Below, in pieces: positions 32,149 through 55,300 of a DNA stretch of 64,000 nucleotides; the first letter of the stretch is position 1, and every line of letters starts with the position of its first letter. The position numbers and the translations under genes were made by a program. This stretch comes from Gaiellales bacterium (GTDB taxonomy: Bacteria; Actinomycetota; Thermoleophilia; Gaiellales; JAICJC01), in contig JAWVEN010000004.1 in assembly GCA_033856675.1 (NCBI GenBank), forward strand, positions 93,532 to 157,531. Reading direction: 5' to 3'. The notes beneath the pieces are model-generated. The model was not told where the DNA came from. It saw only the letters and a list, made by a program, of their open reading frames with translations, and searched no databases.

Positions 32149-32176
32149 CCGAGGCGGCGCAGTCTACCCTTCAGGT

Positions 32177-34938: not shown

Positions 34939-35162
34939 TATCGACCGTACCCCCCGTTCGGGTGGGCGTCAAGGCGGGCGGAAACGGTCATGGAGTGGAG
35001 CCTAGCCCGTTTGCCCAGAGTGCAGGATGCTCGATATTTCTTTGACATTGGTTGATTATGGGACTTGCCACCCAAATGGCCGCCGGTACACTGGCCTAGG
35101 GCTCTTGCTCGGGCAGGGCGCGGGCTCCGTCCCGACATGGCACCGAGGAGTGTGGGTACGAC

Positions 35163-38215: not shown

Positions 38216-38217
38216 CG

Positions 38218-39594: not shown

Positions 39595-39601
39595 AGCCGT
39601 G

Positions 39602-40846
39602 ATGACAGGCGCGCCCGAACGCATCCTCATGATCAACAAGTTCCACTACGCCCGAGGCGGAGCGGAGCTGTACATGCTGCGCCTCGCCGCGCTCCTCGAG
39701 CAGCATGGGTCGCACGTCGACTACTTCGCCATGCACCACCCGCGGAACCTGCCGTCCGAGACCGACAGGCATTTCGTCTCGGAGGTCGACTTCGAGGATC
39801 CGCCCAAGGGGTTTCGGCGTCTCGGCATGGCCGGCCGAACCGTCTACTCGCTGGAGGCGCGGCGCAAGATGCGCGACCTGCTCGCCGAGCGGCCCGCCGA
39901 CCTGGCGCACCTCCACAACATCTACCATCAGCTGTCGCCGTCCATCCTGTCGTCGCTGCGCAAGCGCAACGTCCCGGTCGTGATGACCGTGCACGACTTC
40001 AAGCTGGTGTGCCCGGTCTACACCCTCCAATCCCACGGCGAGATCTGCGAGCGGTGCGTCGGCAACGGGTTCTCGCCCGCCGTTAAGCACCGGTGCAACC
40101 GTGGCTCGCTGGTGGGGAGCCTGCTGGTCGCCGGTGAGACCTGGACGCACAAGAAGTTCGGCCTCTACCGGAACGGCATCGACATCTTCATCACGCCGAG
40201 CGTCTTCGCACGCGATCGCCTGGTCAAGGGCGGCTACCCCGCGGAGCGGATCCGGGTCATTCCCAACTGCGTGACGGCTGCGGTGTACGAGCCGCAGTAC
40301 GAGCCAGGGGAGAAGATCCTGTATCTCGGACGGCTATCCCGTGAGAAGGGTCTCGACGTGCTCGTGCGCGCGTCGGCATTGTCGGGAGTGCCGGCACAGA
40401 TCGCCGGCGAGGGGCCGCAGCGCGCGGAGCTGGAGCGGCTGATCGCCGAGACGGGCGCCCCGGTCGAGCTGCTCGGATTCCGGCAGGGCAACGAGCTCGC
40501 CGAAACCGTGCGGGCGGCCCGGGCGGTCGTGATGCCGTCACGTTGCCACGACAACGCCCCGCTGGCCGTGATCGAGGCGATGGCGTGGGGCAAGCCTGTC
40601 GCCGGCAGCCGCGTTGGCGGCATCCCTGAGATCGTGCGCGACGGCGTCGACGGGCTGCTCGTCCCCTACGACGACCCGGTGGCGCTCGGCGAGGCGATGA
40701 CGCGCCTTTCGGGCGATGACGACCTCGTGGCGAACATGGGCCGGTCGGCACGGGCGCGGGTCGAGGAGCGCTTCGACGCTCCTGCCCACTACGCGGCGGT
40801 GGTCGAGGCCTACGGCCTGGCACGGGAGCTCCGGAGAGCTGCATGA
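39602..40846 (+). CDS. Glycosyltransferase family 4
   Basis: GT-B fold with E-x7-E region (NAPLAVIEAMAWGKPVAGSRVGGIPEIV). Start is the internal ATG at 39602 (MTGAPERILMINKF...). Confidence 0.85.
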   Translation: MTGAPERILMINKFHYARGGAELYMLRLAALLEQHGSHVDYFAMHHPRNLPSETDRHFVSEVDFEDPPKGFRRLGMAGRTVYSLEARRKMRDLLAERPADLAHLHNIYHQLSPSILSSLRKRNVPVVMTVHDFKLVCPVYTLQSHGEICERCVGNGFSPAVKHRCNRGSLVGSLLVAGETWTHKKFGLYRNGIDIFITPSVFARDRLVKGGYPAERIRVIPNCVTAAVYEPQYEPGEKILYLGRLSREKGLDVLVRASALSGVPAQIAGEGPQRAELERLIAETGAPVELLGFRQGNELAETVRAARAVVMPSRCHDNAPLAVIEAMAWGKPVAGSRVGGIPEIVRDGVDGLLVPYDDPVALGEAMTRLSGDDDLVANMGRSARARVEERFDAPAHYAAVVEAYGLARELRRAA

Positions 40847-41949
40847 GGATTGCGATGGTGGGACAGAAGACCAACGTCACTCGCTTCGGCGGCATCGAGC
40901 GGCATGTCGGCCTGCTCGCAGACCGGCTGGCCGAGCGTGGGCACAAGGTGACGGTCTTCACGCGCGGCCATTACGGGCAGCCGATGGCTCCTGCCGACGG
41001 CGTCACGCTGACGCGGCGCCCGTCCATCCCGGCCAAACACCTCGAGGCGATCACGCATTCGTCCATCTGCTCGCTCGAGTCCGGGCTGCGGGGCTACGAC
41101 GTCATCCACTTCCACGGCGTCGGTCCCTGCCTGGCGATTCCCTTTGCCAAGCTCGGGCGGCGCTCCGCGGTCTGCGCCACCGTTCACGACCAGGACTACA
41201 ACAAGGACAAGTGGTCGCCCTTCGCGCGCCGCATGTTGCGGGCCGGTGAGCGAACCGCCTGCCGCTATGCGGATGGCGTCATCTCGGTCGCGCACTACCT
41301 GGAGCGGCATCTGAAGGACACCTATGGCCGCGACGCCGCCTACGTGCCCAACGGGAACGACCCGCTCACCGTGCGCCCTGCCGGTGAGACGCTCGAGCGG
41401 TTCGGGCTCGAGCCCGGGCGCTACCTGCTCTTCCTGGCGCGGCTCGTCCCCGAGAAGGGGTGCGACGTCCTGATCGAAGCCGTGCGTGCGAGCTCCACGG
41501 AGCACCGGCTGGCGATCGTCGGCGGCGCCAGCCATTCCGACGACCACGTGGCCTATCTGCGACGCCTTGCGGGCGCCGACCCGCGGATCGTGTTCCTCGA
41601 CTTCCAGAGCGGGGATGCGCTCGACGAGCTGCGCTCCAACGCCGCCGCCTACGTGATGCCCTCGCGGCAGGAGGGGCTCCCGCTCTCGCTGCTCGAGATG
41701 CTCTGGTACGGCATGCCGGTGATCGCGAGCGACATCCCGGCGGTGCACGAGACCGACGGGGCCGTCGAGGACGGGCGCATCACGCTCGTTCCGCCAGGCG
41801 ACGGGGAAGGCCTGCGCCAGGCGATCGAGCGGCTGCCCTGGCCCGCCCCACCGACGACGACCGGCCGCCTCAGTTGGCCGACGTGGGCCGATGTCGCCGA
41901 AGAGGTCGAGGGCGTGTACGAAGCGATTACCCGCCGTAAAACACGCTGA
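40843..41949 (+). CDS. Glycosyltransferase family 4
   Basis: ATGA overlap start. The N-terminus MRIAMVGQK...GGIERHV and EGLPLSLLEMLWYGMPVIASDIP are typical GT4 features. Confidence 0.85.
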   Translation: MRIAMVGQKTNVTRFGGIERHVGLLADRLAERGHKVTVFTRGHYGQPMAPADGVTLTRRPSIPAKHLEAITHSSICSLESGLRGYDVIHFHGVGPCLAIPFAKLGRRSAVCATVHDQDYNKDKWSPFARRMLRAGERTACRYADGVISVAHYLERHLKDTYGRDAAYVPNGNDPLTVRPAGETLERFGLEPGRYLLFLARLVPEKGCDVLIEAVRASSTEHRLAIVGGASHSDDHVAYLRRLAGADPRIVFLDFQSGDALDELRSNAAAYVMPSRQEGLPLSLLEMLWYGMPVIASDIPAVHETDGAVEDGRITLVPPGDGEGLRQAIERLPWPAPPTTTGRLSWPTWADVAEEVEGVYEAITRRKTR

Positions 41950-41999: not shown

Positions 42000-44498
42000 A
42001 TGGATGCGCCGCGGGGGCGCCGCGCCCTGTCGCGATCGTTGCCACTTTTGAGAACGTTGGGAGAGCAGTTGATTCGCAATCGCCGTCTTCATCACCGGCT
42101 CGGATACTCGTTGCGCCGGCCGGCGGTGCTGCTCGCCGTGCTCGTGGCCTCTCTGATCGGCGTGCCCAGCGCGCTCACCGCGCCGGTGACGACCCAGTTC
42201 ACCGGGTCGGTGTCGTCCACGGGGGTCAAGTTCAAGAACCACCCGATCACGGTGACCGAGGCGGGCACGATCACGGCGACGCTCGACTGGGCAACGCCGA
42301 CCGCGAACCTTTCGCTGTTCCTGACCGACCCAGCCGGCGTCCAGGTGAAGTCCGTCGCCGGCGCGGCGAAGCCGAAGACGTTCACATTCGCGGCGACGGC
42401 GACCGGCGTCTACAAGGTCGGTGTCAAGGCTGTCACCGGGACATCGGCGTACACCCTGAACGTCACGTTCCCGGGTCAGGCGCAGACGGGCAGCGGGCTT
42501 GTGACGTTCCAGAAGGCGATCGGCTTCAGCGGCAGCGCGGGCCTCTACGCGTATGGCATGGACTGGGATCCCACCGACAACACGATTTTGGTCGGCGACT
42601 ACTGGAACTACCGCGTCTGGCGCTACACGACCGCCGGCGTCAAAGTTGGAGTGGTGTCCCAACATGCCCTCGGCGGCATGCGCGGTGGCATCAGCGCGCC
42701 ATATGACGTCGAAGCCGACCCGACCGATCTCGACGCGGGCGCAAAGGCGTCGCTGTGGGTTGCCGACCAGGGCAGCTCGCGCATCGTGCAGTTCAGCCAC
42801 AACGGCGCGTGGCTGCAGACCATCGGCAAGTCGAACACGGGCGAGCCCACCGGCACCGACGCCGCGCATCCCGGCAAGAGCTACGCGATGGGCTGCGGAG
42901 CGGGTGCCATGCAGATTCCCACGCACATCGTGGTCGACACGGTTCGGCCCTCGCACCTGATCTACGTGTCCGATCCGCGTTGCCGCGCCGTGTACATCTT
43001 CGACCACCAGGGCGGGTTCCAGGGGCAGCTCGACTGGACCGGATCGGGCGTCGGACAACCCATCCCGCGCGGTCTTGCGCAGGACGCGGCCGGGAACATC
43101 ATCGTCACCGAGTTCAACAGCCGGCGGATCTTCTTCTTCGACCCGGTGACCCGCAAGATCAAGGGCTCGATCGCCGCGCAGAGCGATATGAACGACGTCC
43201 GCGGCCTCGACGTCGATCCGGTCCGGAACTTCGTCTATACGGTCGGGGCATTCTGGAACCGCGTCTACCAGTTCTCATACGACCCGGCCCAGGTGGCCGC
43301 CGGGACGGGTGCGGGGAGCGTCGTCGGCCGGTTCGTGAACGAGTGGCGCAACAACGACGGCACGAACTTCGCCAACAACCACCAGCCGTTCGACTCGATC
43401 CGCTTCCCCACCGTCGATGGGGCCGGGAACGTGTACGTCGGCGAGACGTGGGGCTGCGATGCCTCGTGCACCGGCACGCCGTACGGCTACGGGGTCGAGA
43501 AGTTCTCCCCCGGAGATGTCGCTGCCAACCCCAGCTGCACGGTGGCGAATGCCACGACAGCGCAAGCGTCGTGCGCAGGCGCGACCGCGATGCCATGGGC
43601 CACCGGCCCTCAGCCTCCGCCGCCTGGTGGCTTCAACCAGCAGAACGGCATCGCGATCAACCCGGCCGACAACTCGCTGTTCGTGATCGATACCTTCGAG
43701 CAGAGGGTGCAGAAGTTCGATACGTCACAGTCCTGTGACTCCGATCTGAACTGCCCAGGCTTCGTCCTCCAGTGGGGCTCGCGAGAGCCCGCGAACCCGA
43801 ACTCGAAGGGCCTCGGCTATCCCAGGGCGCTGACGTTCGGCGAAGGGATGGTCTGGGTCGGCGACAACAACAACGCCGTGCTGGCGTTCAACCCGGATGG
43901 AAGCTTCGTGCACCGTTATGGCGCGCAGGGCGGGGCGGCCGGCCAGTTCAAGGGCGGCGTCCAGGGTATCCATGTCGAGGGCAACCGGGTGTACGCGACC
44001 GATGTGGCCGGCTGCCGGTTGCAGATCTTCGACAAGACGGCGCTCCTGTCGGCAACCAGCGGCCTCACTCCGCTGGAGAACCTCGGAGCATGCGGCACCG
44101 GAGTCAACCAGATGTCCGCCCCGCGCGGCATCGCGGTCGACGAACCGAACAACGTCGTCTACGTCGCCGAAACCGGCACCAGCCGGATCTCGAGGTGGAA
44201 CCTCGCCACCGACACCGCCACCACGATCAAGCCGACCTGCGGCGGCAAGGCCCTTGCGCAGCCGTGGGGCCTGACGTGGGATCCCGCAAAGACGTGGATC
44301 TACATCGGTGACGTCAAGAACGCGCGAATCGTGCGATGGAACCCGTCGACCGGCGTCTGCCAGGTTGTGGCCACGAGCGCCGACATGCCGTCGCAGTTTC
44401 AGATGCTGGGCTCGAACTACGTCGAGTTCGCGGGCGCGAACACCATGTACGTCAGCGACAACGCGCGCCGCGTGTACGTGTTCACGGTGACGGGCTGA
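42000..44498 (+). CDS. Secreted PPC-like domain + NHL-repeat beta-propeller protein (paralog 1)
   Basis: Arg-rich signal sequence (RRPAVLLAVLVASLIGVPSALTA). An N-terminal beta-sandwich of about 110 aa resembles pre-peptidase C-terminal domains. Repeated NHL-type blades follow (VADQGSSRIVQF, VSDPRCRAVYIF, VIDTFEQRVQKF, ATDVAGCRLQIF). The exact start is uncertain. Confidence 0.7.
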   Translation: MDAPRGRRALSRSLPLLRTLGEQLIRNRRLHHRLGYSLRRPAVLLAVLVASLIGVPSALTAPVTTQFTGSVSSTGVKFKNHPITVTEAGTITATLDWATPTANLSLFLTDPAGVQVKSVAGAAKPKTFTFAATATGVYKVGVKAVTGTSAYTLNVTFPGQAQTGSGLVTFQKAIGFSGSAGLYAYGMDWDPTDNTILVGDYWNYRVWRYTTAGVKVGVVSQHALGGMRGGISAPYDVEADPTDLDAGAKASLWVADQGSSRIVQFSHNGAWLQTIGKSNTGEPTGTDAAHPGKSYAMGCGAGAMQIPTHIVVDTVRPSHLIYVSDPRCRAVYIFDHQGGFQGQLDWTGSGVGQPIPRGLAQDAAGNIIVTEFNSRRIFFFDPVTRKIKGSIAAQSDMNDVRGLDVDPVRNFVYTVGAFWNRVYQFSYDPAQVAAGTGAGSVVGRFVNEWRNNDGTNFANNHQPFDSIRFPTVDGAGNVYVGETWGCDASCTGTPYGYGVEKFSPGDVAANPSCTVANATTAQASCAGATAMPWATGPQPPPPGGFNQQNGIAINPADNSLFVIDTFEQRVQKFDTSQSCDSDLNCPGFVLQWGSREPANPNSKGLGYPRALTFGEGMVWVGDNNNAVLAFNPDGSFVHRYGAQGGAAGQFKGGVQGIHVEGNRVYATDVAGCRLQIFDKTALLSATSGLTPLENLGACGTGVNQMSAPRGIAVDEPNNVVYVAETGTSRISRWNLATDTATTIKPTCGGKALAQPWGLTWDPAKTWIYIGDVKNARIVRWNPSTGVCQVVATSADMPSQFQMLGSNYVEFAGANTMYVSDNARRVYVFTVTG

Positions 44499-45582
44499 CG
44501 CTGCGCCCTGGCGGCCCGTACGGGGGCCTGCCGCACAGCGCACGCACCTGCGCCGCCACGCGCGGCAGCGCATCCAGGCCCATCGGCCGCTCGAGGTCGT
44601 AAACCGGCACGCGTTCGGCCAGCTCGCCGAGCTGCTCGAACGTGCGGAGGTCGTCAGCGCCTCCGGGGATCCGGAAGGTGAGGGGCCAGATGTCGCGCAG
44701 CGCGGGGCCTGCCGGCCACGCCCGCACGGCGTCGCGGCCCTCGCGCAGCAGGACGATCGCCGCGACCCGCACCGGGCCGGCGTCGCCTCGGGTGTGCTCG
44801 TCGATCTCGAGGTAGGCGTGCTGCCCGTGCCGGCCGACGAGGCGCATCCCGCGCGGGACGGCGCCGGTGTCTGCCGCCGGCCGGCGCACCACCGCCGGGC
44901 CGGGGAGCACGACGACCTCGTCCTCGAACCGGATCCGGGTGATGTCCTGCGTCAGCACACGGCAGCCCGCCTCGTGCATCGCCAGCGTGAGCGCCGTCTT
45001 GCCGAACCCTCCCGGCGCGGCCAGGATCACCGCGCGGTCGCCGTCGGCCACCGCGGCTGCGTGCAGTGACAGGTCGCCCAGGCGGGTGAACGCGAGCATC
45101 GCAGGGACGCCCCAGAGGTGCACCTCCCGAGCGATCGGATCAGCGTCCCGCGGCACCTCGATGGTGCGATCGAACGGCGCGATCCGGTACCACCCGAGAC
45201 CCTCGGCGAAGAAGTCGAAGATCACCTTGCCGCCGTAGAGCTTGCCGGCGACCCCGGTCTGCTCCGGCCATTGGAGCAGGTGCGGCTCGGCATGCACCGG
45301 TGCGCCGCCGCGCAGCTCGACGACCTCGATCACGTCGCGGCTTGCGCCGTCCCGGGTGAAGCGCAGGTCGAACGACGCGAGCGCCGAGAACCCGAAGCAG
45401 CTGCGCGACAGGTCGCTCGCTTCGCTGCTGACGAGGCGCTGCGGATGGGAGCGGCTGGCGATGTGGTCACCGAACACTGGTGCGATGTTCGCCCGAACGT
45501 GGATTTCACCTTCGGGCGCCCGCGCGAGGCCTCCACGTGGCCTCCACGTGGCCTCCGCGGCATGTCCGATTCTGGCTTCCAT
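44482..45582 (-). CDS. HPr-kinase-C-terminal-like P-loop protein (HprK-related kinase family)
   Basis: Central LHAAAVADGDRAVILAAPGGFGKTALTLAMHEAG resembles the HprK_C catalytic core and P-loop. The rest is unassignable. The 3' end overlaps the convergent NHL gene by 17 nt. Confidence 0.45.
   Translation of the reverse strand: MEARIGHAAEATWRPRGGLARAPEGEIHVRANIAPVFGDHIASRSHPQRLVSSEASDLSRSCFGFSALASFDLRFTRDGASRDVIEVVELRGGAPVHAEPHLLQWPEQTGVAGKLYGGKVIFDFFAEGLGWYRIAPFDRTIEVPRDADPIAREVHLWGVPAMLAFTRLGDLSLHAAAVADGDRAVILAAPGGFGKTALTLAMHEAGCRVLTQDITRIRFEDEVVVLPGPAVVRRPAADTGAVPRGMRLVGRHGQHAYLEIDEHTRGDAGPVRVAAIVLLREGRDAVRAWPAGPALRDIWPLTFRIPGGADDLRTFEQLGELAERVPVYDLERPMGLDALPRVAAQVRALCGRPPYGPPGRSVSPSP
45528..45560. 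repeat. 11-bp tandem repeat GGCCTCCACGT x2 plus a degenerate third copy (contains CACGTG palindromes)
   Basis: Read directly: ggcctccacgt ggcctccacgt ggcctccgcgg. It lies within the first ~20 codons of the HprK-like ORF, near the divergent promoter region. Confidence 0.6.
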
Positions 45583-45796
45583 GCCCGCGTTGAGCGAAAG
45601 GTTTCCCGAACTTCGTTCTAAGGGTCACAAGGCAGAGTGCCCGCCGTCCCAAGCCGACAGATTCCGCTCTTAGCGGTTTCTGTCGCAATTTCGAACAGTT
45701 CGCTGGCCGCTGGCTAACAGGCTCCGAACAAGTGGCGGCCAATGTTCGTGCCGGCGAACACCCACGTCCCACCCCGAATCCAGGAGGGGTTTGCCA

Positions 45797-46972
45797 GTGA
45801 CACGTCACGCTCGTCCCACGTTGACCGTCCTTGCCGTCTTGAGCACGGTGTTCGCCATAGTGCTCCTCGGTGCCTCGTCCGGCTCCGCCGCGACGACGAC
45901 CGACAGGGGCATTCCGACCTGGCTGTTCGACGGCAGCGCCACGGTCGTCACCACGGCGGCAAGGGCCCAGGCCGTCGCCAAACGACACGACGTCATCATC
46001 GGCGTGCCGCGCTACGGCACGTTCCTGAAAGACCTGAAAGCTGCGAACCCGGGCATCACGGTTGCCGAGTATCACAAGGGCACCACGGTGAAGGGCGACT
46101 TCGCGTGGGTCCAGAAGAACCATCCCGACTGGCTGCTGCGAAACCAGAGCGGCAACCTGATGAAGAGCTCGTGGGGCGGCTACCTGATCAATCCATCGCT
46201 GCCCGCGGTGCGGCAGTGGCAGGCCGAGTACGCAAAAGCACAGCAGGCCGGGGGCTGGACCGCCGTATACATGGATGCCATGGGGTCGATGGCGTTCTAC
46301 GGCTTCCCGGGTGTCCCGGTGAATCCCGCCACCAAGCGGCCGTTCACCCTCACCGAGTGGCTGGCGGCCACCACCGGGCTGGCCGAAGCGGTCGATGCGG
46401 CTGTCAGCATCCCGGTACTCCTGAACGGCTACAACAGCGGCACGCCGTACGTGAAGAACACCCACGTGCTGGCGAGTGTCGCTCAGGGCGGTGTGTTCGA
46501 GGGCTGCTTCCGCGACGCCACCGACCGCGTCACTGCTTGGCCGTCGATGACCGACTGGACGAACCAGTTGAAGGCGCTCGACGATGTCGACGCCAAGGGC
46601 CGCATGGCGCTCTGCATGACGAAGATGTGGACGGGCGGCACGGCTGCGCAGCTGAACCAGTGGAACGACTTCACGCTGGCCTCCTTCATGCTGGCGAAGG
46701 GGCCCAAGTCGTACTTCATGTTCATGGCGTCGAAGAGTCAGGACGCGATGACGTCGTGGAACGCCAGCCCACCCGCGATCGGCGCGCCGACCGGCGCGCG
46801 GACCCAGCAGGGCAGCGCCTGGGTTCGTCCGTTCGCAAGCGGGATGGTCGCAGTGAACCCGGGCACCGCGTCCGAGACCGTCTCCCTTGGAGGCACCTAC
46901 GTCACGCCGGCCGGCAGGTCCGTCACCAGCGTCACCCTGGGAGCGCACGAGGGAGTGATTCTTACGAGGTAG
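45797..46972 (+). CDS. Secreted hypothetical protein, putative glycoside-hydrolase-like TIM barrel (GH114/GHL15-like), paralog 1
   Basis: GTG 9 nt after AGGAGGGG (alternative TTG at 45791), followed by a signal peptide. Clear paralog of 51649..52857 (shared blocks such as D(A/M)(M/L)G, VLLNG/VLGNG, NP.G...VSLGG.Y). The family assignment is from memory of similar proteins and is not verified. Confidence 0.5.
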   Translation: MTRHARPTLTVLAVLSTVFAIVLLGASSGSAATTTDRGIPTWLFDGSATVVTTAARAQAVAKRHDVIIGVPRYGTFLKDLKAANPGITVAEYHKGTTVKGDFAWVQKNHPDWLLRNQSGNLMKSSWGGYLINPSLPAVRQWQAEYAKAQQAGGWTAVYMDAMGSMAFYGFPGVPVNPATKRPFTLTEWLAATTGLAEAVDAAVSIPVLLNGYNSGTPYVKNTHVLASVAQGGVFEGCFRDATDRVTAWPSMTDWTNQLKALDDVDAKGRMALCMTKMWTGGTAAQLNQWNDFTLASFMLAKGPKSYFMFMASKSQDAMTSWNASPPAIGAPTGARTQQGSAWVRPFASGMVAVNPGTASETVSLGGTYVTPAGRSVTSVTLGAHEGVILTR

Positions 46973-48488
46973 GCCGCCCGCCGGGGACGCGGGCAAGCCG
47001 GGCGACCGGCCTGGGCAGGAACCGGTCGTCTTCGTCGAACGCCCCCGCAGCAATCAGCGCGGCGGCGTAGACGATCGTCGCGCCGGTCGCCCCTACCAGC
47101 AGGGCGACCGGCGCAGGCATACCGTCGAGCAGCAGTCGCAGCCCGGATGCCGCGACGATGAAGGCCGCGAGCGCGCCGAGCACGCGAGGCGTCCAGTCGC
47201 CAAACGGATGCATCTCGAGCACCCGCCAGACCTGCCACACCCGGATGGCGTTCCACGCAATGATCGAGATGCCCCACGCGAGGCCCGCGCCTACCAGGCC
47301 GAACGGCTCGATCAGCGCCAGGCTGAGGGTCAGATTCAGCACCAGCGCGGCCAGGCTGTTCTGAAGCACGAGATCCGAGCGACCGATCATCGTCACGACA
47401 TGGCCGCACGGCCCCGTGGCGGCGCTCACGGTCTGGCCGATGGCCAGCAGCGCCAGCGGCCAGGCGCCGCGCGCGTACGAGTCGTCGTAGAACAGGTGCA
47501 GCACCGGTGTCGCATAAAGCGCGATGAAGATCAGCGCAGGGCAGCCGACCAGCGTCGACCACTTCGTCGCGAAGGAGTACATGCGCCGCAGCCCGGCGTT
47601 GTCGGAGCGGGCGTAGAGCCGTCCGATCTGCGGCTGGAATGCGATGCCGATCGGGAGGATGAACATCATCCCCAGGAGCACGGTCCTGGTGGCGATGGAG
47701 TACACCGCCACGTCGTCCGGCGGCCGCCAGTAGCCCAGCAGCAGGGTGCCCGCCCAGAGCAACCCGACGCCGGCGATCGACGCGCCCCACTGATTCGCGC
47801 TGAATCGCACCAGCTCGGGGATGTCGACTGTGACCGCCTCACGCAGGCGGCCGATCACCGGTCTCGCGGCCACCGCGGCAGCAGCCGTGGTCAGGTACGA
47901 GGCGACGGTGAAGGCGGTCGCGGTGCCGTCGAGACCGGTGCCGAGCGCCATCGCGACGGCGACGAGGGCCACACGCAGCACGCCGTCGGCAACCTGGTCG
48001 ACGACGACGAACGCCCGCATTCGCCCTGTGCCGCGGGTCGCGCCGATCAGCACCATCTGCAGCACCACCGCCGGAAGCGACAGCGCCATGATCTTCAGCA
48101 CCGTCTCGAGGTGCGCCTCACCGAAGGAGGCGGAGACCTGAGGCGCGAGGATGAAGACGACCGCGGTGATCGCGATGGACAGCACACCGGCAAGGAGCAG
48201 GGACACGACGACGGCCGCCCGCGCCTGGTCCATCTCGCCTCGCGCGCGGTGAACGGCGACGTAGCGGATGGCGGTGATGTCGAGCCCAAGGACGGCGAGC
48301 ACCGACAGCAGCCGTACCGCCGCGAACCCCTCGAAGAACACGCCCGCATCCGCGGGCGTGAGCCAGGTCGCGATCAGGAGGACGAGGCCGAACTGCAGCG
48401 CATTGGCAGCGGCCAGCCCGACGAAGTTCACCGCCGAGCGGCGTGCGAGCTTTGCGGTTTCCTGCGTCGCTTCGTGCTCTTCAGACAC
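46962..48488 (-). CDS. wzx: Polysaccharide flippase (Wzx/MOP superfamily)
   Basis: 508 aa with about 14 TM segments and a typical oligosaccharide-flippase hydropathy profile. Sits in a glycan locus directly downstream of a sulfotransferase, with an 8-nt overlap. Confidence 0.75.
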   Translation of the reverse strand: MSEEHEATQETAKLARRSAVNFVGLAAANALQFGLVLLIATWLTPADAGVFFEGFAAVRLLSVLAVLGLDITAIRYVAVHRARGEMDQARAAVVVSLLLAGVLSIAITAVVFILAPQVSASFGEAHLETVLKIMALSLPAVVLQMVLIGATRGTGRMRAFVVVDQVADGVLRVALVAVAMALGTGLDGTATAFTVASYLTTAAAAVAARPVIGRLREAVTVDIPELVRFSANQWGASIAGVGLLWAGTLLLGYWRPPDDVAVYSIATRTVLLGMMFILPIGIAFQPQIGRLYARSDNAGLRRMYSFATKWSTLVGCPALIFIALYATPVLHLFYDDSYARGAWPLALLAIGQTVSAATGPCGHVVTMIGRSDLVLQNSLAALVLNLTLSLALIEPFGLVGAGLAWGISIIAWNAIRVWQVWRVLEMHPFGDWTPRVLGALAAFIVAASGLRLLLDGMPAPVALLVGATGATIVYAAALIAAGAFDEDDRFLPRPVARLARVPGGRPTS

Positions 48489-49401
48489 CGAGTTGCTCGT
48501 CCAGCCGCCTGCTCAGGTCGTCGCAGAGGCGCCGCACCGACGGGTCGATCTCGAGCGGCTCGCGTCGTGCCGGCGGCCGCTGCTCGATGTGCGCGGAGAG
48601 CTCGGGATGGTACGGAAAGTCGAGGAAACGGCAAAGCGCCTGCATCGAGCCCTCAGGATCGCTCAGGAACCGGTCATATGACGCCAGCGCGACATCCTCG
48701 CGTGTGTTCAGGCCGCGCTCGAAGTAGAGCGAGTTGCGGATGTACCAGAACAGTGCGGCCGCCGTCTCCGGCGTCATGGCCGAATAGTCGAAGCTCTCCA
48801 CGAGTGCACGGTTCTCCGCCGACAGCCCACGGGCCTGCCAGCGATGGTCGCCGCGTCCCGAGGCGATCTCGCTCAGCACGTCGAGGTTGTTCGACCCGAA
48901 CTTCGCCAGGGCCGACCGCACCCGGCCGTCGACCGAGCGGTACGCCCAGATCGCGCGGCCGGGACTGGGTGTCCCCAGGTTGTCGAGGATCTCGTCGACG
49001 CGGTGTGAGTCGCAGAGCGGCTTGAACAGGACGTAGCGGTGGCCGCTGTGCGTGATCAGGTTGCGGATCAGCGGGTCGGGCCGCAGTTGGAACCGCTCGA
49101 ATGCGTCGTTGTCGTTCTCGTTGCGCACCTCGAACTCCGGGCTGCGCTCGAGCCCGCGGACGAGCATGTTCGTGCCCGACCGCTGCACCCCGACGACGTA
49201 CACCGGCGCCGCTTTCGGCGCCACGTCGTGCTGCCGGCGCCACTTCCACTTGCGCAGTGAGAGTGCTCCACGCTCCAGCGGGTTCAGTTGATCCTCTTCG
49301 ATCAGGCGGCGGAAGCCCTGCCGTCTGCCCCAGTCCCAGTGGCGCCGCAATCGCATTGCGATCCACCGGGCGCGCGACTCACGTCCGGTCTCGGTTTTCA
49401 T
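48481..49401 (-). CDS. Sulfotransferase family protein
   Basis: PAPS-binding loop (VYVVGVQRSGTNMLVRGL). Start trimmed to the ATG at 49401 (MKTETG...). Confidence 0.7.
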   Translation of the reverse strand: MKTETGRESRARWIAMRLRRHWDWGRRQGFRRLIEEDQLNPLERGALSLRKWKWRRQHDVAPKAAPVYVVGVQRSGTNMLVRGLERSPEFEVRNENDNDAFERFQLRPDPLIRNLITHSGHRYVLFKPLCDSHRVDEILDNLGTPSPGRAIWAYRSVDGRVRSALAKFGSNNLDVLSEIASGRGDHRWQARGLSAENRALVESFDYSAMTPETAAALFWYIRNSLYFERGLNTREDVALASYDRFLSDPEGSMQALCRFLDFPYHPELSAHIEQRPPARREPLEIDPSVRRLCDDLSRRLDEQLGV

Positions 49402-49511
49402 CCGCCGAATGGTTGCAGAACATGGAAATCGGCGTAGGATTGCGTCGTCGAAACCGGGGGCTTCGGCAGAGTTTGGCTTGCCCGGGGGACAGGCGATCAA
49501 GGGGGCACGAA

Positions 49512-51440
49512 ATGCAACGAGTGATGCTCGTTCGCGGCGCACGTAGGCGACTCACGGTTGCGGCGTTGCTGGCCATCGCCGCTCTGGCGGCGGTTCCGTC
49601 GGCAGCGGGCGCTGCCGCGAACTACCAGAAGACGTACGGCTTCAACGGACCGGCGGGGCTCTACGCCTACGGCATGGACTTCGACCCGACGGACAACACT
49701 GTGCTGGTCGGCGACTACTGGAACTACCGGGTCAAACGGTACTCGGCGGCCGGCGCGTTCCAGAGGATCGTCTCGCATACGCGTCCCGGAGGCTCACTCG
49801 GCGGCATCACGGCGCCCTACGACGTCGAGACCGACCTGCGCGACAGGAACTCGGCCGGCGAGGCGTCGTATTGGGTCGCCGATCAGGGCAGCTCGCGGAT
49901 CGTGCAGTTCACGCACAACGGCAAGTGGCTGCAGACGATCGGCGCGGGCGGCGGCGGCAGGGACGCGGATCACCCGGGCGGGAAGTACGCGGTCGGGTGC
50001 GGTGGCGGCAAGATGACGATCCCGACGCACATGTGGGTCTCGCCCAAGACCGGCAGGCTCTACGTGTCCGACCCCCGCTGCAGGGCGGTGTACGTCTTCG
50101 GGCACGGCGGCAAGTTCGTCAGCTCGTTCAACTGGTCGGGCAGCGGCGCCGGCACGCCGATCCCACGCGGCATCGCCGGCGACGGCAACGGCCACATCTA
50201 CGTCGTCGAGCACGCGACTCGTTCCATCTACGTCTTCAACTCCAATGGCACGTTCCGGAGCAAGTTCGCGCGCGTGGACGACATGAACGATCCGCGCGGG
50301 CTCGACGTCGACCCGCGCAGCAAGCGGATCTACGTCGTCAGCGCGATCAAGAACAAGGTCTACCAGTTCAGCACGGGCGGCGCCTTCATCCGCAGCTGGG
50401 GCAGCACCGGCGGAGCGGGCGGCGGCGGTCAGCCATTCGACTCGGTTCGCTTCCCCGCGGTTGACAACAAGGGCAACGTCTACATCGGCGACACCTGGGG
50501 CTACCGGGTCTGGAAGTTCAACAAGGACGGCCAGCCGCTGGGCTGGTCGGAAGGGGCTCAGCCACCTCCGAACGGCGGTTACAACCGCAACAACGGCGTC
50601 GGCGTCTCGCCCGCGGGTGACCTGTTCGTGGTCGACACGTTCGAGCAGCGGGTGCAGAAGTTCGACACCGCCTCGGCGTGCCCCAACAAGGACCAGTGCC
50701 CGGCGTGGATGGCGAAGTTCGGCTCCCGTGAGCCGGCCGGGCTCAACTCGAAGGGCTTCGGCTATCCGCGCGAGCTGATCTTCGCCGACGGCAACGTCTG
50801 GATCGGCGACAACAACAACGCGGTGCTCGTGTGGAGCGCGGCCGGCGGCTTCATCCACCGGTTCGGCTCGCAGGGCTCTGCCCCCGGCCAGTTCAAGGGT
50901 GGCGTGCAAGGGCTCGCGGTGGTCGGCGGAAAGGTCTACACGACCGACATCGCCAATTGCAGGCTGCAGATCTTCGACAAGGCAAAGCTGTTGGCGGCGA
51001 GGAGCATCGAGGACAACCCGAGCGCGCTCCTGCAGCGCTTCGGCAGCTGCGGCTCCGGAGACAAGGAGATGATCTCCCCGCGTGGCATTGCGGTCGCCGA
51101 CACAAGGATCTTCGTCGGCGAGGCCAGCGGACGCATCTCGGTCTGGAACCCGTCAACCGGCGGTCATTCCACATACAAGCCCATGTGTGGCAGCCGCCGG
51201 CTGGGGGCGACGCTGGATCTCGAGTGGAACAACGCCCACACGTGGATCTATGCGGCCGACCTCGGCAACAAGCGGGTCGTGCGCTTCAACGCCGGCATGA
51301 CGATTTGCGAGGGCGTGACCGGCGGTGGCGGCGTCCCGGGTGGCAAGTGGGATGGCCCGCACTATCTGGCGTTCGGGCCGGACGGGAGGCTCTACGTGAG
51401 TGACAACTCCCGTCACGTCTACGCCTTCACAAACGCCTAG
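49512..51440 (+). CDS. Secreted NHL-repeat beta-propeller protein (paralog 2)
   Basis: ATG after AAGGGGG, with signal peptide MQRVMLVRGARRRLTVAALLAIAALAAVPSAAGA. Collinear with 42000..44498 from GLYAYGMD(W/F)DPTDNT to the C-terminus, but lacks the PPC-like domain. Confidence 0.75.
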   Translation: MQRVMLVRGARRRLTVAALLAIAALAAVPSAAGAAANYQKTYGFNGPAGLYAYGMDFDPTDNTVLVGDYWNYRVKRYSAAGAFQRIVSHTRPGGSLGGITAPYDVETDLRDRNSAGEASYWVADQGSSRIVQFTHNGKWLQTIGAGGGGRDADHPGGKYAVGCGGGKMTIPTHMWVSPKTGRLYVSDPRCRAVYVFGHGGKFVSSFNWSGSGAGTPIPRGIAGDGNGHIYVVEHATRSIYVFNSNGTFRSKFARVDDMNDPRGLDVDPRSKRIYVVSAIKNKVYQFSTGGAFIRSWGSTGGAGGGGQPFDSVRFPAVDNKGNVYIGDTWGYRVWKFNKDGQPLGWSEGAQPPPNGGYNRNNGVGVSPAGDLFVVDTFEQRVQKFDTASACPNKDQCPAWMAKFGSREPAGLNSKGFGYPRELIFADGNVWIGDNNNAVLVWSAAGGFIHRFGSQGSAPGQFKGGVQGLAVVGGKVYTTDIANCRLQIFDKAKLLAARSIEDNPSALLQRFGSCGSGDKEMISPRGIAVADTRIFVGEASGRISVWNPSTGGHSTYKPMCGSRRLGATLDLEWNNAHTWIYAADLGNKRVVRFNAGMTICEGVTGGGGVPGGKWDGPHYLAFGPDGRLYVSDNSRHVYAFTNA

Positions 51441-51455
51441 AGGCCAAGAGCCTAC

Positions 51456-51485
51456 GGGGCGCCGGTCGGGTACGGCCGGCGCCCC
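51456..51485 (+). terminator. Intrinsic-terminator-like hairpin after NHL paralog 2
   Basis: GGGGCGCCGGTC-gggtac-GGCCGGCGCCCC (12-bp stem including one G-U pair) starts 16 nt after the stop. It is followed by a moderately T-containing tail. Confidence 0.5.
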
Positions 51486-51648
51486 GGTTCTCTGCCCGTT
51501 TCGCGTCATGGTCGTGCTGTAAGGAAACGGTAAAACTGCGCATCGGTGGTCTAACGCCGAAAGCTCCGCCGCCGATACAGAAGCCCTGGGTCAAGGGGGA
51601 TGGCGGCACCGCTGGGTGTGCCTCCCCCGCAACACACGGGGGGACAAC

Positions 51649-52857
51649 GTGAAACGGCTATTCATTGCCGCTGCTTGCATCATCGCGACCTTGGTCGCGG
51701 TCGGCACAGCGAATGGCAGCGGAACCGTCACGAGCGCGGCGGGGGCCGGGTTCGTGGACAGCTCGGCCGGTGTTCATCTGTGGGCGCCTATGCACACCGC
51801 TCCGCACACCTTCAGGAGCCAGGCGCAGGCCGAGGACGCGGCGAAGAGGTTCGACCTCATCACCGCCAATCCGCGGCAGCTGGGCGGCTACGGCAACGCC
51901 ATGCGGGCGGCGAACCCGTCCATGAAGCTGTTCGTGTATTTGAACGGCACCTATCTTTACAAGCGGCTCGTCGGCACGCTGCCGGACGCGCTTCTGTCAC
52001 ACGATGCCCGCGGCGCGATCATCCGGTCGCGTGGCTACGGCAACGTGCTGGCCAACCCGGCCAGCCCGGGGTGGGTCACCTATGTCCAGGGCGAGTGCGC
52101 GAAGCTGCTGCTCGGGAGCCCGTTCGACGGGTGCTTTCTCGACATGCTCGGCACTGGCCCGCTGTTTCCGGGCTACGGGACGGGGCTTCCGATCAATCCT
52201 GCGACCGGGAAGGTCTGGACGAAGCGGGACTGGCTGACGACCACAGCGGCGCTTGCCGCCAAGGTCGCAGCGTCCACTGGCAAGCCGGTGCTCGGCAACG
52301 GCCTCGGCAGTGGCCCGCGGTACTTCAACGCCGACGGTCCCGCGAGCCTGTTGCTGAACGGGGCGACCGGTGCGACGGCGGAGGCCTGGGTGCGGCCGGC
52401 TGGTGCGCCGCTCAGCTGGCACCAGAAGGCCTCGGCCTGGCAGCAGGAGGTCGACATGCTGAGTCATGCCCACTCGGTGGGCGGCCTCGCGCTCACGATC
52501 ACCAAGACGTGGACCGCCGGCAGCGTCGCCCAGAAGGCGAATGCCCGCAAGTTCGCCCTGGCGACGTTCCTGCTTGGGAACAACGGCAGCTCGTACTTCT
52601 ACTTCACGGCGAACCCGACCGATCCGGCCACGCTCGGCGACCCGCTGTACGACCTGCCGATCGGCTCACCGACCGGGCCGTACACAGTGAGTACGGGTGT
52701 CTACGAACGTGCCTTCACGAACGGGAAGGTGGTTGTGAACCCGACCGGCGCGCCGGTGACGGTGTCGCTCGGCGGAGCGTACGTGCGGTCTGGTGGGACA
52801 GCGGCCACGTCTGCGAACCTCGGTCCCTACGAAGCGGAGATCTTCACGGCCTCGTAG
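51649..52857 (+). CDS. Secreted hypothetical protein, putative glycoside-hydrolase-like TIM barrel, paralog 2
   Basis: GTG after GGGGGGA gives a classic signal peptide (MKRLFIAAACIIATLVAVGTANG). An alternative GTG lies at 51616. Paralogous to 45797..46972. Confidence 0.5.
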   Translation: MKRLFIAAACIIATLVAVGTANGSGTVTSAAGAGFVDSSAGVHLWAPMHTAPHTFRSQAQAEDAAKRFDLITANPRQLGGYGNAMRAANPSMKLFVYLNGTYLYKRLVGTLPDALLSHDARGAIIRSRGYGNVLANPASPGWVTYVQGECAKLLLGSPFDGCFLDMLGTGPLFPGYGTGLPINPATGKVWTKRDWLTTTAALAAKVAASTGKPVLGNGLGSGPRYFNADGPASLLLNGATGATAEAWVRPAGAPLSWHQKASAWQQEVDMLSHAHSVGGLALTITKTWTAGSVAQKANARKFALATFLLGNNGSSYFYFTANPTDPATLGDPLYDLPIGSPTGPYTVSTGVYERAFTNGKVVVNPTGAPVTVSLGGAYVRSGGTAATSANLGPYEAEIFTAS

Positions 52858-52919: not shown

Positions 52920-55058
52920 GTGCCAGTCGTGCTTCGGATTCGCATGCTGCTGTCCCTCGCGGTCCTGGTCGCAGCCGCGTTGGTGCCCTCGGTGCCTGCG
53001 TCCGCAACCTTGCAGTTCGGCGGCACGGGCCTGGAGGGCGGTGGATTCCAGAACGTCGTCGCCGTCGACCCGTTCGACAGCGACGTCGTTTTGTCCGGTG
53101 GCGATGTCGCGGGGTTCCAGCGCTCGACGGATGGCGGCGTCACGTGGCGCAGCTCGAACGCCGGCCTGTCGGTGCGTCAGCAGCTCGCCGTGGCGTCGAT
53201 CCTGTTCTCTCCTACGACGCAGGGAAAGGTCTACGCCGCCGTTGGCGATGCGGGCAACTCCGGCGGCCTATTGGTGTCGAACGACGGCGGCCGGTCGTGG
53301 ACGGTGCGGTCGACGACGCCAATGTTCGCGGGCGGTAACGCCAAGACCGCGGGGATGCCGGCCGAGCATCCACGCTCGACCGGCAATCTGCTGGTCGAGG
53401 TTGGCGGGAGGCTGTATGCGGCGACGTTCAAGAGTGGCCTGATGCGGTCGGACGACGACGGTGTCAGCTGGACGACGCTCGGCCTCGCCGGTGTGCACTT
53501 GCGCACCCTCGCCGCCGACTCCTTGAACTTCGGAGTGCTGTACGTGGGGAGCTACGGCCAGGGAGCATTTCGGATCGACGACTCCGTCGCAGGCCTCACG
53601 GTCACGCCGCTCGGCTCCAGCCCTCGCGTGATCGAGGAGCTGTCGATGGTCGGTTCGACGATCTTCGCTGCCGCCGGTACGGCGGGCCTGTTCCGCTCCG
53701 ACGACGGAGGCGGCACGTGGCAGCATGTCGGTACCGGGCTCGCCGCCGGAGCGAACTGGACGTCGATCGTCGCCCGGCAGGACTGCACCGCGTCGACCAC
53801 CGTTCTTGCCGGTGCGCTTGGCCCGGGGGCCGACGATGTCGTCCGCTCGTCCGATGGCGGGACGACCTGGGGTTCGTTGACAGCTGCTCCGGCCGCGGTG
53901 AAGACAACCGTCGGTGGTCCGGCGGGCCATCCCTGGTGGCTGGCGTCGCGCACTGGTTTTCTGCTCGGCGGACCGATGTACGCGCCCGCCCAGATCGCAT
54001 TCGCGCCGTCGAGCCTCTGCGAATCTCCTGAAGTGTTCGTGGCCGGACGCTCCGGTTTGTGGGGCTCACGCGACGACGGTGGCACCTGGTATCCGATGGT
54101 CGGCCGCATGGGTGTGTCGATCGCCCAGACCATGGCCGTCGACCCGGCAAACCCGCGGCTGGTGCACATCGCTGCGACCGACTGGGGCTACGTCGGGTCA
54201 TCCAATGGCCTCGACACGGTCAGCGCCGCAGCGATCGCGGGCGCCGGTCCCACGGCGTTCGACGTCGCCGTCGACTCCGCGTCGGGGCCGTCACGTGTCT
54301 ACGTCACCACCGGGCACCGCGACAGCAACACGAAGGGGCGGGTGCTGTCGTCTTCCACCCCGTCCGTGAACTCGAGTTGGGTCGACGAGAAGCTTCCGGT
54401 TGCCGGCAAGCGTGCCCTTGCGATCGCCGTCGGGCGGCAGGGCGCAAACCGCGTGGTGATCGCCGCCGTCGACGCCGGGGGCATCTGGCGGAAGGTGGGC
54501 ACGGCGTGGAAGAAGGTGACGACGCCCGCCATGGCGGTGCGCAACCCGGCAAAGCCGATTCAACTGATCTGGCCGACGGGCACCGGGACGATCTACCTCT
54601 ACGACCACAAGACCGGCATCTGGCGCTCGACGGACTACGGCCTGAAATGGACCAAGATCTGGGCGAAGCCGTCTGCCGGCGATCTCAAGGGCTACATCGC
54701 TGCCAATGCGACGGGAACACAGCTGTGGGTGTCGACCGGCGGGTCGATCTACCGGCTCGACGGTGCCAACAGCGGCACGGTCGGGGCCGGGATCACGCCA
54801 CGGCTGACGCTGCCCTGGGCGGGGCCTGTGGGGTTCGACCATGCGAGCGGCACCGTCTACGTCGCCGAGCAGGCGACGCCCGGCCGCGCTCCGGCGCTGT
54901 GGGCCTCCACCGACGGCGGGTCGAGCTGGGAGGACGTCGCCGACGACGGGTATCGAGCGGCCGCGCTCCAGGTCTTCGACCTCGTGCCCGACCGCACCGG
55001 AGGGATCTGGGCGGCGCTCCAGGGCAACGGCATCATCCACGGCGTGCCCGGCTCGTAG
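52920..55058 (+). CDS. Secreted BNR/Asp-box repeat protein (sialidase/GH74/sortilin-like beta-propeller)
   Basis: Signal peptide, then at least eight S-x-D-x-G-x-(T/S)-W Asp-boxes (STDGGVTW, SNDGGRSW, SDDDGVSW, SDDGGGTW, SSDGGTTW, SRDDGGTW, STDYGLKW, STDGGSSW). Start is GTG 52920 or ATG 52944. Confidence 0.75.
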   Translation: MPVVLRIRMLLSLAVLVAAALVPSVPASATLQFGGTGLEGGGFQNVVAVDPFDSDVVLSGGDVAGFQRSTDGGVTWRSSNAGLSVRQQLAVASILFSPTTQGKVYAAVGDAGNSGGLLVSNDGGRSWTVRSTTPMFAGGNAKTAGMPAEHPRSTGNLLVEVGGRLYAATFKSGLMRSDDDGVSWTTLGLAGVHLRTLAADSLNFGVLYVGSYGQGAFRIDDSVAGLTVTPLGSSPRVIEELSMVGSTIFAAAGTAGLFRSDDGGGTWQHVGTGLAAGANWTSIVARQDCTASTTVLAGALGPGADDVVRSSDGGTTWGSLTAAPAAVKTTVGGPAGHPWWLASRTGFLLGGPMYAPAQIAFAPSSLCESPEVFVAGRSGLWGSRDDGGTWYPMVGRMGVSIAQTMAVDPANPRLVHIAATDWGYVGSSNGLDTVSAAAIAGAGPTAFDVAVDSASGPSRVYVTTGHRDSNTKGRVLSSSTPSVNSSWVDEKLPVAGKRALAIAVGRQGANRVVIAAVDAGGIWRKVGTAWKKVTTPAMAVRNPAKPIQLIWPTGTGTIYLYDHKTGIWRSTDYGLKWTKIWAKPSAGDLKGYIAANATGTQLWVSTGGSIYRLDGANSGTVGAGITPRLTLPWAGPVGFDHASGTVYVAEQATPGRAPALWASTDGGSSWEDVADDGYRAAALQVFDLVPDRTGGIWAALQGNGIIHGVPGS

Positions 55059-55063
55059 CCGCG

Positions 55064-55300
55064 TTACGGCTCGTCTGACCGGATCAGGTACCAGGCGGCC
55101 TGGCGGTCGACGACCATCAAGTCGTACCGGCGCCCGGCAGCACGCGCTTCGGCCCAGTCGATGACCTCACCGACATTCCGGGCTTCGGTGAGCTCGTACT
55201 CGTCCGACCGAGTGCGCTCCTCGTTCCAAAAGTAGACGCGGTAGATCGGAACGGGTGTTTCGACTTCGATGTCGCGAGGGTCCACGCCTCGAACGTTCAT
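55064..55300 (-). CDS. Hypothetical small protein (78 aa)
   Basis: ATG at 55300 forms an ATGA overlap with the RNase H stop. GC3-rich with a non-repetitive sequence. The rest of the 204-aa ORF-track entry is an alternate frame of the RNase H gene. Confidence 0.45.
   Translation of the reverse strand: MNVRGVDPRDIEVETPVPIYRVYFWNEERTRSDEYELTEARNVGEVIDWAEARAAGRRYDLMVVDRQAAWYLIRSDEP

Follow-up and report, generated by a model that had tools for sequence, protein, structure and literature searches.

A stretch of 64,000 nucleotides from a Gaiellales bacterium (GCA_033856675.1, contig JAWVEN010000004.1, positions 93,532 to 157,531; hereafter the window) raises the question of why two families of predicted secreted proteins, NHL-repeat beta-propellers and TIM-barrel-like proteins, are each encoded twice within 11 kb, and what they do there. 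The initial annotation, made from the sequence by a model, read the four genes as an old duplication of a two-gene module whose propellers might be polysaccharide lyases (PLs). Our best explanation is a different one, which we hold as a whole with moderate confidence. The 11-kb region is read as the distal half of a Wzx/Wzy-dependent exopolysaccharide (EPS) locus with sulfotransferases, in an uncultured soil member of the Gaiellales (Thermoleophilia, Actinomycetota). The TIM-barrel-like proteins, here GHL15-1 (encoded with Wzx) and GHL15-2 (encoded with the sulfotransferase ST2), are taken as ancestral, separately placed paralogs, and the propeller protein NHL1 as an ancestral member of the locus. 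The four genes are as follows.

42000-44498, + strand: NHL1, 832 aa (Pfam NHL 1.5e-20, SGL 5e-13, PPC 8e-5)
45791-46972, + strand: GHL15-1 (Pfam GHL15 1.7e-16)
49512-51440, + strand: NHL2, 642 aa (Pfam NHL 5.4e-24)
51649-52857, + strand: GHL15-2 (Pfam GHL15 4e-14)

The gene map was drawn with a filter on third-position G+C (GC3; window G+C ~69%), and all four open reading frames (ORFs) have coding-type values (GC3 0.83-0.88). The NHL2 start at 49512 is backed by close relatives (homologs of 634-638 aa), and the GHL15-2 start at 51649 (alternative 51616) by the relative in locus L083. Signal-like hydrophobic segments are seen in the sequence at all four N-termini and appear as low-confidence helices in the models.

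The GHL15 and NHL protein families

GHL15-1 and GHL15-2 align end to end over ~400 aa (32% identity, E 6e-43), which bears out the earlier view of them as paralogs. Both score well above the cutoff of 27 for Pfam GHL15 (PF14885), with 61.4 and 53.6 bits, respectively. This Pfam family corresponds to CAZy glycoside hydrolase (GH) family GH168, and both proteins are distant GHL15/GH168 members. A profile built from the two window proteins and 24 relatives (26 sequences) was searched against the PDB and returned 16 matches. The 10 best, comprising all those with E <0.001, were GH168-family chains (6e-15 to 4e-8), among them 9nhf (MeGH168, deposited as 'GHL15 protein', 6e-15), 9f9v (Rho5174), 8rg3/8rg5 (PbFucA), 8ya6 (Fun168A), 9jom, 9jos and 9joc; PelA and alpha-galactosidase were reached at noise level only.

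Structure prediction led to the same family. The AlphaFold model of GHL15-1 (predicted local distance difference test, pLDDT, 89) comprises eight beta/alpha units followed by six strands at 338-392, which form a C-terminal beta-sandwich. When this model was compared with the PDB by Foldseek, the 17 best matches were all GH168 endo-fucanases (template modelling, TM, score 0.60-0.69; E 1e-13 to 6e-18). GH27, GH36, GH13, GH191 and PelA came next at ~1e-10, the families other than GH168 being ~1e6-fold worse. The TIM-barrel-like fold named by the initial annotation is thus a (beta/alpha)8 glycosidase-like fold of the GH168 type.

The characterised GH168 enzymes are all retaining endo-alpha-L-fucanases acting on sulfated fucans, with the nucleophile/acid-base pairs D206/E264 in FunA, D167/E237 in MeGH168, D152/E228 in Rho5174 and D184/E254 in PbFucA (PMC11943901, PMC12210190, PMC11685898). 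By alignment, the predicted nucleophile is conserved in both window proteins: D162 of GHL15-1 (motif YMDAMG) is invariant in the 26 sequences and is equivalent to D176 of GHL15-2 (D176 and E256 being numbered from the start at 51616). D162 aligns with the Asp of FMDA(F/V) in 9nhf and 9f9v, where the chain index equals the published nucleophile number + 3 (a 3-residue tag), and an hhalign comparison with a GH168-like fragment (P0162) aligned both this Asp and the NG motif.

The acid/base is likely E237 (GVFEGCF) in GHL15-1 and E256 (ATAEAWV) in GHL15-2, both of which directly follow the predicted strand beta6 (233-236 in the GHL15-1 model). These putative catalytic Glu residues lie 75-80 residues past the Asp and 25-28 past the invariant Asn-Gly of beta5; the Asp-Glu spacing is 58-76 in solved GH168 structures, with 76 in Rho5174. 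P0162 has spacings of 70 (Asp-Glu, the same as D167-E237 of MeGH168) and 24 (Asn-Glu), and its motif VIIEHF resembles the hydrophobic-hydrophobic-E-x-(F/W) pattern around the GHL15 Glu.

NHL1 and NHL2 are collinear paralogs, as had been proposed, with 48% identity over 665 columns (E = 0), and all the identical blocks quoted in the initial annotation are present. At the DNA level, their conserved patches are 72-79% identical over 131-290 nt and 89% identical over 47 nt; DNA similarity between the two gene pairs is limited to the NHL genes. The earlier reading of both pairs as old paralogs is supported. The PPC-like domain described before in paralog 1 alone was recovered there at residues 83-143 (Pfam E 8e-5; 23.9 bits, just under the gathering score of 25.9), and many NHL homologs carry the same domain (PF04151). 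NHL1 also has a specific Cys-rich insert of ~45 aa in the sixth blade region (residues ~486-530, window ~43455-43590) with four extra cysteines, which is missing from NHL2.

The NHL proteins score 72-83 bits with Pfam NHL (PF01436; cutoff 20). The NHL2 model (pLDDT 90.3; predicted TM score, pTM, 0.84) has 12 four-stranded blades, and its sequence has 12 blade motifs of the form hydrophobic-x-D-x3-R-hydrophobic-x2-aromatic. As modelled, the NHL proteins are therefore tandems of two six-bladed NHL propellers. In Foldseek, the whole NHL2 chain matched tandem WD/propeller scaffolds, and the single propellers matched the NHL domains of TRIM71 and Thin (target-normalised TM 0.78-0.82). The PDB sequence matches of the family were likewise NHL domains (Pizza designs from PknD, TRIM71 and Brat), and catalytic propellers were matched over short, weak stretches only (PAL 3fvz 7e-8, DFPase 2e-6). 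The NCBIfam ScyF model, with its cutoff of 350, gave 110-149 bits. Across the family, eight Cys positions are invariant or near-invariant, which fits a disulfide-stabilised extracytoplasmic protein; from the sequence, these cysteines probably form disulfides.

The window proteins thus share the blade motif and fold of known six-bladed NHL propellers (the PknD sensor domain, TRIM71/Brat/Thin, PAL and ScyF), with TM ~0.8 per propeller to TRIM71 and Thin, and like PknD and ScyF they are extracytoplasmic, by prediction. They differ in the tandem 12-blade fusion, the conserved Cys, the optional PPC domain, the arrangement of genes in arrays and the EPS/sulfotransferase context. The family is expanded in Gaiellales (4-6 copies per genome). 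Nostocoides and Acidimicrobiia hold distant relatives (~30% identity), and the NHL arrays of Nostocoides australiense and N. veronense are on mixed strands.

A sulfotransferase-bearing exopolysaccharide locus

The EPS locus extends over 29.2-55.1 kb of the window, with Pfam assignments for 16 genes. Beyond the four genes listed above, its features are as follows.

29249-30196, + strand: sulfotransferase ST1 (Pfam Sulfotransfer_3)
30229-32148, + strand: Wzy_C/TPR membrane protein (Pfam 2.9e-8)
31949-33361, + strand: GH5 protein (Pfam)
33358-34938, - strand: priming sugar transferase (Pfam Bac_transf)
35163-36587, + strand: Wzz (Pfam)
36416-38215, + strand: alkaline-phosphatase-superfamily protein (Pfam)
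38218-39594, + strand: Wzy (Pfam Wzy_C)
39530-41949, + strand: two GT4 glycosyltransferases (Pfam GT4)
44482-45582, - strand: HprK-related P-loop gene (GC3 0.89; no Pfam match; NCBIfam TIGR04352 below cutoff)
46962-48488, - strand: Wzx-type flippase (Pfam Polysacc_synt 1.3e-18 and MatE)
48481-49542, - strand: sulfotransferase ST2, divergent from NHL2 (Pfam Sulfotransfer_3 1.8e-8)
52920-55058, + strand: BNR/Sortilin-type propeller, a putative glycosyl hydrolase of 712 aa (Pfam Sortilin-Vps10 1.3e-11 and BNR)

A complete Wzx/Wzy EPS set is therefore present in one cluster (Bac_transf, Polysacc_synt, two Wzy_C, Wzz, two GT4 and two Sulfotransfer_3), flanked by housekeeping genes for methylmalonyl-CoA mutase upstream and propionyl-CoA carboxylase downstream. 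The same combination of Wzx/Wzy/Wzz with several sulfotransferases is found in two predicted sulfated-EPS clusters, xss (synechan) of Synechocystis 6803 and wps-1 of Actinoplanes missouriensis (PMC8205485, PMC13390465). The wps-1 cluster is also actinobacterial and also has a glycoside hydrolase and a kinase-like protein; unlike in the window, its hydrolase belongs to GH26, and the words 'NHL' and 'propeller' are absent from the text of the wps-1 paper (PMC13390465). In the open-access literature, we found no paper tying NHL repeats or GH168 to sulfotransferase EPS loci.

Homologous loci, cited by L numbers, were collected by scanning GTDB species representatives with the NHL profile (56 loci, nearly all from Gaiellales/Thermoleophilia) and were mapped against the window proteins and hidden Markov models of both families. 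Exact-protein look-ups added more loci, as did a metagenome scan with the alignment of the GHL15-1 clade (15 loci). The loci are not phylogenetically independent, and their counts are descriptive only. Homologs came almost exclusively from metagenome-assembled genomes of Gaiellales/Thermoleophilia.

Both families recur beside sulfotransferase and Wzx/Wzy genes in these loci. Tandem arrays of 2-5 NHL copies adjoin sulfotransferase genes in Wzx/Wzy loci (L010, L016, L021, L027, L029, L032, L039, L043, L044, L048, L049, L051, L062, L063 and L066), and an NHL array stands beside sulfotransferases in L002 as well. GHL15 genes lie in sulfotransferase-bearing Wzx/Wzy loci as well (L005, L009, L013, L021, L022, L027, L029, L032, L036, L037, L051, L057, L063, L065-L067, L069 and L074). 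A GHL15 gene is found within 10 kb of an NHL gene in ~16 of ~28 loci with EPS genes, versus 1-2 of ~32 NHL loci without them. The two families thus travel together beyond this genome, a point in favour of the initial annotation. What brings them together is that each is an accessory component of EPS loci with sulfotransferases, in varying number and order. The sulfated-polymer link suggested earlier is also reinforced, since sulfated fucans are the substrates of the closest characterised GHL15 relatives and both families recur by sulfotransferase and Wzx/Wzy genes.

The positions of several genes are conserved. The window-type locus is kept in at least 12 contigs (L003, L005, L007-L009, L013, L022, L036, L037, L054, L067, L069 and L074), and the upstream block 29249-41949 is syntenic in L003, L005, L007-L009, L036, L037 and L054. 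NHL1 orthologs (70-74% identity) occupy the same slot after the glycosyltransferase gene GT4b in at least 10 other loci. The 3' end of GHL15-1 overlaps that of the convergent Wzx gene, and GHL15-1 orthologs are always convergent with Wzx and overlap it (window, L009, L022, L037, L063, L067-L070, L073, L074, L076, L077 and L080). ST2 orthologs (76-78%) were found in L005, L013, L022, L036, L067, L069 and L074, and in all of these except L022 a GHL15-2 ortholog (59-66%) lies directly beside ST2 with no NHL gene between. In L069, a BNR ortholog comes next after the GHL15-2 ortholog. Both GHL15 clades flank Wzx in other locus types (L021, L027, L032 and L069).

Several observations concern the arrays. 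Three to five diverged NHL genes stand together in L063 (5801-14054), L021, L027, L039, L043, L044, L048 and L049, and one L063 array is broken by a free-standing 96-aa PPC-domain gene. L010 (JBBIHW010000014.1), binned as Acidobacteriota, holds a Gaiellales-type locus with three sulfotransferase, two NHL (50% identity) and two GT4 genes, which reflects either a binning error or horizontal transfer. PMT/PMT_2-type GT-C genes lie beside NHL genes in L069 (1743-3125, - strand) and L062 (1632-3008, + strand); they hint at extracytoplasmic glycosylation of polymer or protein.

The spacings reported earlier hold for both pairs (1292 bp and 175-208 bp), but the gap between NHL1 and GHL15-1 is not empty. 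It contains the opposite-strand gene 44482-45582, which matches the NCBIfam model TIGR04352 (HprK-related kinase A) with E 1.4e-10, and whose orthologs (50-56% identity) occur in L003, L007, L009, L013, L022, L036, L037, L067, L069 and L074. Between NHL1 and GHL15-1 in L067 (1158-7866) and L069 (1743-9836) lies a larger cassette encoding NTP_transf_5, HprK-like, Asn_synthase-like and PqqD proteins together with an ABC ATPase and an ABC-2 permease; L066 (1-2810) has the cassette plus a Transglut_core3 (transglutaminase-core) gene. This gene set resembles lasso-peptide clusters of the kinase/nucleotidyltransferase (paeninodin/pseudomycoidin) type, some of which include a sulfotransferase (PMC8498205). 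The window's HprK-like gene seems to be a remnant of such a lasso-peptide-like cassette, with ~5 kb lost.

At the distal end, the BNR gene starts 62 bp 3' of GHL15-2 and is probably co-transcribed with NHL2 and GHL15-2; its ortholog in L069 is 57% identical and sits in the same place. Its product matches the NCBIfam F510_1955 glycosylhydrolase model below cutoff and PDB 3b7f (a BNR glycosyl hydrolase) with E 9e-6. Counting GH5, GHL15, NHL and BNR, the locus has genes for four types of putative secreted protein that act on glycans. The ORF at 30229-32148, which was not picked by the GC3 filter and runs into the GH5 gene as defined by its longest-ORF start, encodes a second Wzy_C/O-antigen-ligase-like multi-pass protein with a TPR-like tail. 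This protein could be a ligase or O-oligosaccharyltransferase instead of a second polymerase. An identification of ST1 as a NoeE-like fucose sulfotransferase was rejected as too weak for use (24 bits, cutoff 500). Elsewhere in the window, selenocysteine machinery (SelA, SelB) lies beside genes for a molybdopterin oxidoreductase, a Nuo51-like protein and an aldehyde:ferredoxin oxidoreductase (13083-21555), and a small RNase H/RVT_3-like gene stands directly beyond the EPS locus (55297-55722).

Possible roles of the secreted proteins

In the mechanism that we propose, the repeat unit would be sulfated while lipid-linked on the cytoplasmic side, in line with what is generally known of Wzx/Wzy pathways and of sulfotransferases dependent on 3'-phosphoadenosine-5'-phosphosulfate (PAPS). 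After flipping and polymerisation, Sec-exported GH168-like enzymes would cut the cell's own sulfated chain by a retaining Asp/Glu mechanism. This cleavage would set chain length, or trim, release or remodel the matrix, in the manner of the self-glycanases of the Psl, Pel and cellulose systems (PslG, PelA and BcsZ), and the NHL double propellers would bind or process the same anionic polymer. Trimming of the organism's own sulfated polymer is the most likely role of the GHL15 proteins, because their genes sit in a Wzx/Wzy locus with sulfotransferases. EPS self-glycanases (PslG, the PelA hydrolase domain, BcsZ, PgaB and Sph3/Ega3) are likewise secreted glycoside hydrolases encoded in the locus of the polymer presumably cut, and the PelA hydrolase domain is weakly related to GHL15 in both fold and sequence. 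The window differs from these systems in its GH family, in having two to three paralogs per locus and in its monoderm host.

With the GH168 endo-alpha-1,3-L-fucanases (FunA/Fun168A, Fun168D/E, MeGH168, Rho5174 and PbFucA), the window proteins share the Pfam family, the barrel and beta-sandwich fold, a nucleophile Asp within hydrophobic-(M/L)-D, a Glu at acid/base spacing and predicted secretion; the shared link to a sulfated glycan comes, for the window, from gene context. No fucose pathway genes were seen in the window.

Several points weigh against the proposed role. The GHL15 proteins share only 14-19% identity with the characterised GH168 enzymes, and a profile of the central 150 residues found no match in the PDB. 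The hhalign comparison does not cover the acid/base segment; as sequence alignment fails across this central third, the acid/base assignment is based on spacing and the model. Moreover, a sister GHL15 clade (P0148-P0157) has Gln at the acid/base position. No PAPS or nucleotide-sugar genes were found within the 64-kb window, and the sulfated polymer is predicted from genes. GHL15 orphans occur in unrelated contexts in L059 and L061, and about half of the NHL paralogs (L001, L014, L025 and others) lie among unrelated genes; neither family is confined strictly to EPS loci. Finally, by analogy with the lasso-peptide clusters, a peptide product may have been part of the ancestral system, and some sulfotransferases could serve this peptide and not a glycan. 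The Wzx/Wzy locus that encodes the representative of the Gln clade (L057, 10001-11224) has at least seven sulfotransferase genes but lacks NHL genes.

Vibrio cholerae Bap1 and RbmC are secreted beta-propeller matrix proteins that bind polymer and build the matrix, and their genes lie between the vps clusters. They are our favoured functional analogy for NHL1 and NHL2, although these have FG-GAP repeats of an unrelated type in eight blades and carry a beta-prism lectin as well. That the NHL proteins bind or process the same anionic polymer as the GHL15 proteins is weakly inferred, and we tentatively prefer a non-catalytic matrix or binding role over an enzymatic one.

A doubtful alternative gives the NHL propellers an enzymatic role, for instance as propeller-type polysaccharide lyases, as esterases or as hydrolases resembling lactonases, which would act on the sulfated or uronic polymer in partnership with the GH168-like glycanases. 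They are encoded alongside three other putative secreted glycanases (GH5, GHL15 and BNR), arrays of diverged NHL paralogs look like enzyme sets for heterogeneous substrates, and some catalytic six-bladed propellers (SGL, Arylesterase, PAL and DFPase) are weakly similar to the NHL proteins. However, the best structural matches, TRIM71 and Thin, are non-catalytic. A PAL-like Zn site and a lactonase-like Ca site were considered and, by inspection of the sequence, rejected: the three conserved His lie in different propellers, and the conserved Asp and Arg positions are those of the structural blade motif. The initial annotation had drawn attention to polysaccharide lyases with propeller folds, which in these families have seven or eight blades and a catalytic site; the tandem six-bladed NHL architecture gives this no support, and no PL-family match (PL22, PL24, PL25 or PL11) was present among the 50 fold and 60 sequence matches listed. 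A broader proposal seems unlikely to us, namely that soil Gaiellales make a fucoidan-like sulfated EPS matured by locus-encoded GH168-type endo-glycanases, with the NHL double propellers as a new sulfated-glycan-dedicated class of enzymes or matrix organisers.

It is quite unlikely that the secreted proteins are catabolic, a foraging set for the sulfated polysaccharides of other organisms that is merely parked by EPS genes. The characterised GH168 enzymes are all catabolic fucoidanases from polysaccharide-utilisation loci (PMC11685898, PMC11943901), and not every GHL15 or NHL paralog is found in an EPS locus. The hosts of the characterised enzymes are marine Bacteroidota, Planctomycetota and Verrucomicrobiota, whereas the window belongs to a soil actinobacterium and places GHL15 in a biosynthetic Wzx/Wzy locus. 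By Pfam, no sugar transporter, exo-fucosidase or sulfatase set lies beside these genes in the window. Furthermore, the GHL15-1/Wzx overlap and the GHL15-2/ST2 adjacency are kept across many lineages, and these conserved positions argue for a functional tie to biosynthesis.

We give a similarly low probability to the NHL proteins being glycoproteins of the surface or matrix that accept the glycan of the locus, as in an S-layer glycan cluster located by its structural gene. The Wzy_C/O-antigen-ligase family includes O-oligosaccharyltransferases, and the locus has a second such protein with a TPR tail. In addition, PMT-like GT-C genes adjoin NHL genes in L062 and L069, and the NHL family is multi-copy, Cys-rich and predicted to be secreted. 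On the other hand, the NHL proteins lack an anchoring motif and, apart from one short insert, a Ser/Thr-rich linker, no known S-layer protein of NHL architecture was among the PDB matches listed, and the idea is purely contextual.

Origin of the copies and meaning for the Gaiellales

If the GHL15 proteins and NHL1 are ancestral to the locus, as our best explanation holds, NHL2 has a different history. NHL2 is absent from six orthologous loci, in which ST2 stands directly beside GHL15-2, and the order ST2, divergent NHL2, then GHL15-2 was found only in two short contigs of close relatives, L082 and L083 (NHL2 81-88%, GHL15-2 86%). This distribution points to NHL2 as a sub-lineage insertion between ST2 and GHL15-2. 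Apart from the paralog similarity itself, no flanking repeats were found that could explain the insertion. In L063, four NHL genes occupy the slot of the window's NHL2, GHL15-2 and BNR genes.

Neighbour-joining trees separated the copies in the same way. GHL15-1 and GHL15-2 belong to separate old clades, and each clade keeps its own position (convergent with Wzx or divergent from ST2). NHL1 is part of a tight ortholog clade, and the long NHL2 branch is placed close to orphan copies and to paralogs from other types of locus, so the two NHL proteins are not sisters. Divergence also differs between the pairs, with dN 0.42 and 48% identity for NHL and dN 0.73 and 32% identity for GHL15. The dN/dS comparison suggested by the initial annotation could be made, but dS (0.9-1.0) is saturated (third-position identity 45-55% at 87% GC3) and carries no information on selection or age.

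A single ancient duplication of an NHL + GHL15 module with both copies kept would match the two occurrences of both families in the 11 kb, with order and strand unchanged, and the NHL-then-GHL15 order of L029, L048, L051 and L066, but it is very hard to credit given the six loci lacking NHL2, the tree positions of NHL1 and NHL2, the unequal divergence of the pairs, the co-occurrence of the two old GHL15 clades around Wzx in the distant loci L021 and L032, and the separation of NHL1 from GHL15-1 by an opposite-strand gene and, in relatives, by a 5-kb cassette.

The locus bears on a group of abundant, almost uncultured soil bacteria. According to a 2026 paper, bacterial sulfated polysaccharides had been reported only in cyanobacteria, and it gave a first genetic hint in actinomycetes (PMC13390465). 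From a conserved Wzx/Wzy locus that encodes both sulfotransferases and GH168-like glycanases, Gaiellales are predicted to make and remodel a sulfated matrix polymer. What is new here is the finding of a known family, GH168, in a biosynthetic, soil, actinobacterial setting, so that a family of fucoidanases known until now from marine catabolism gains a biosynthetic context and a new phylum. No principle is overturned; the gain is in annotation and in the discovery of enzymes. For the NHL double propellers, a large uncharacterised secreted family, the gene context yields a testable hypothesis, and the GHL15 proteins are new enzyme candidates for sulfated-glycan tailoring. If the broader, unlikely proposal of a fucoidan-like EPS matured by such enzymes is true, the 'marine fucoidanase' family would have a second, biosynthetic role in bacteria.

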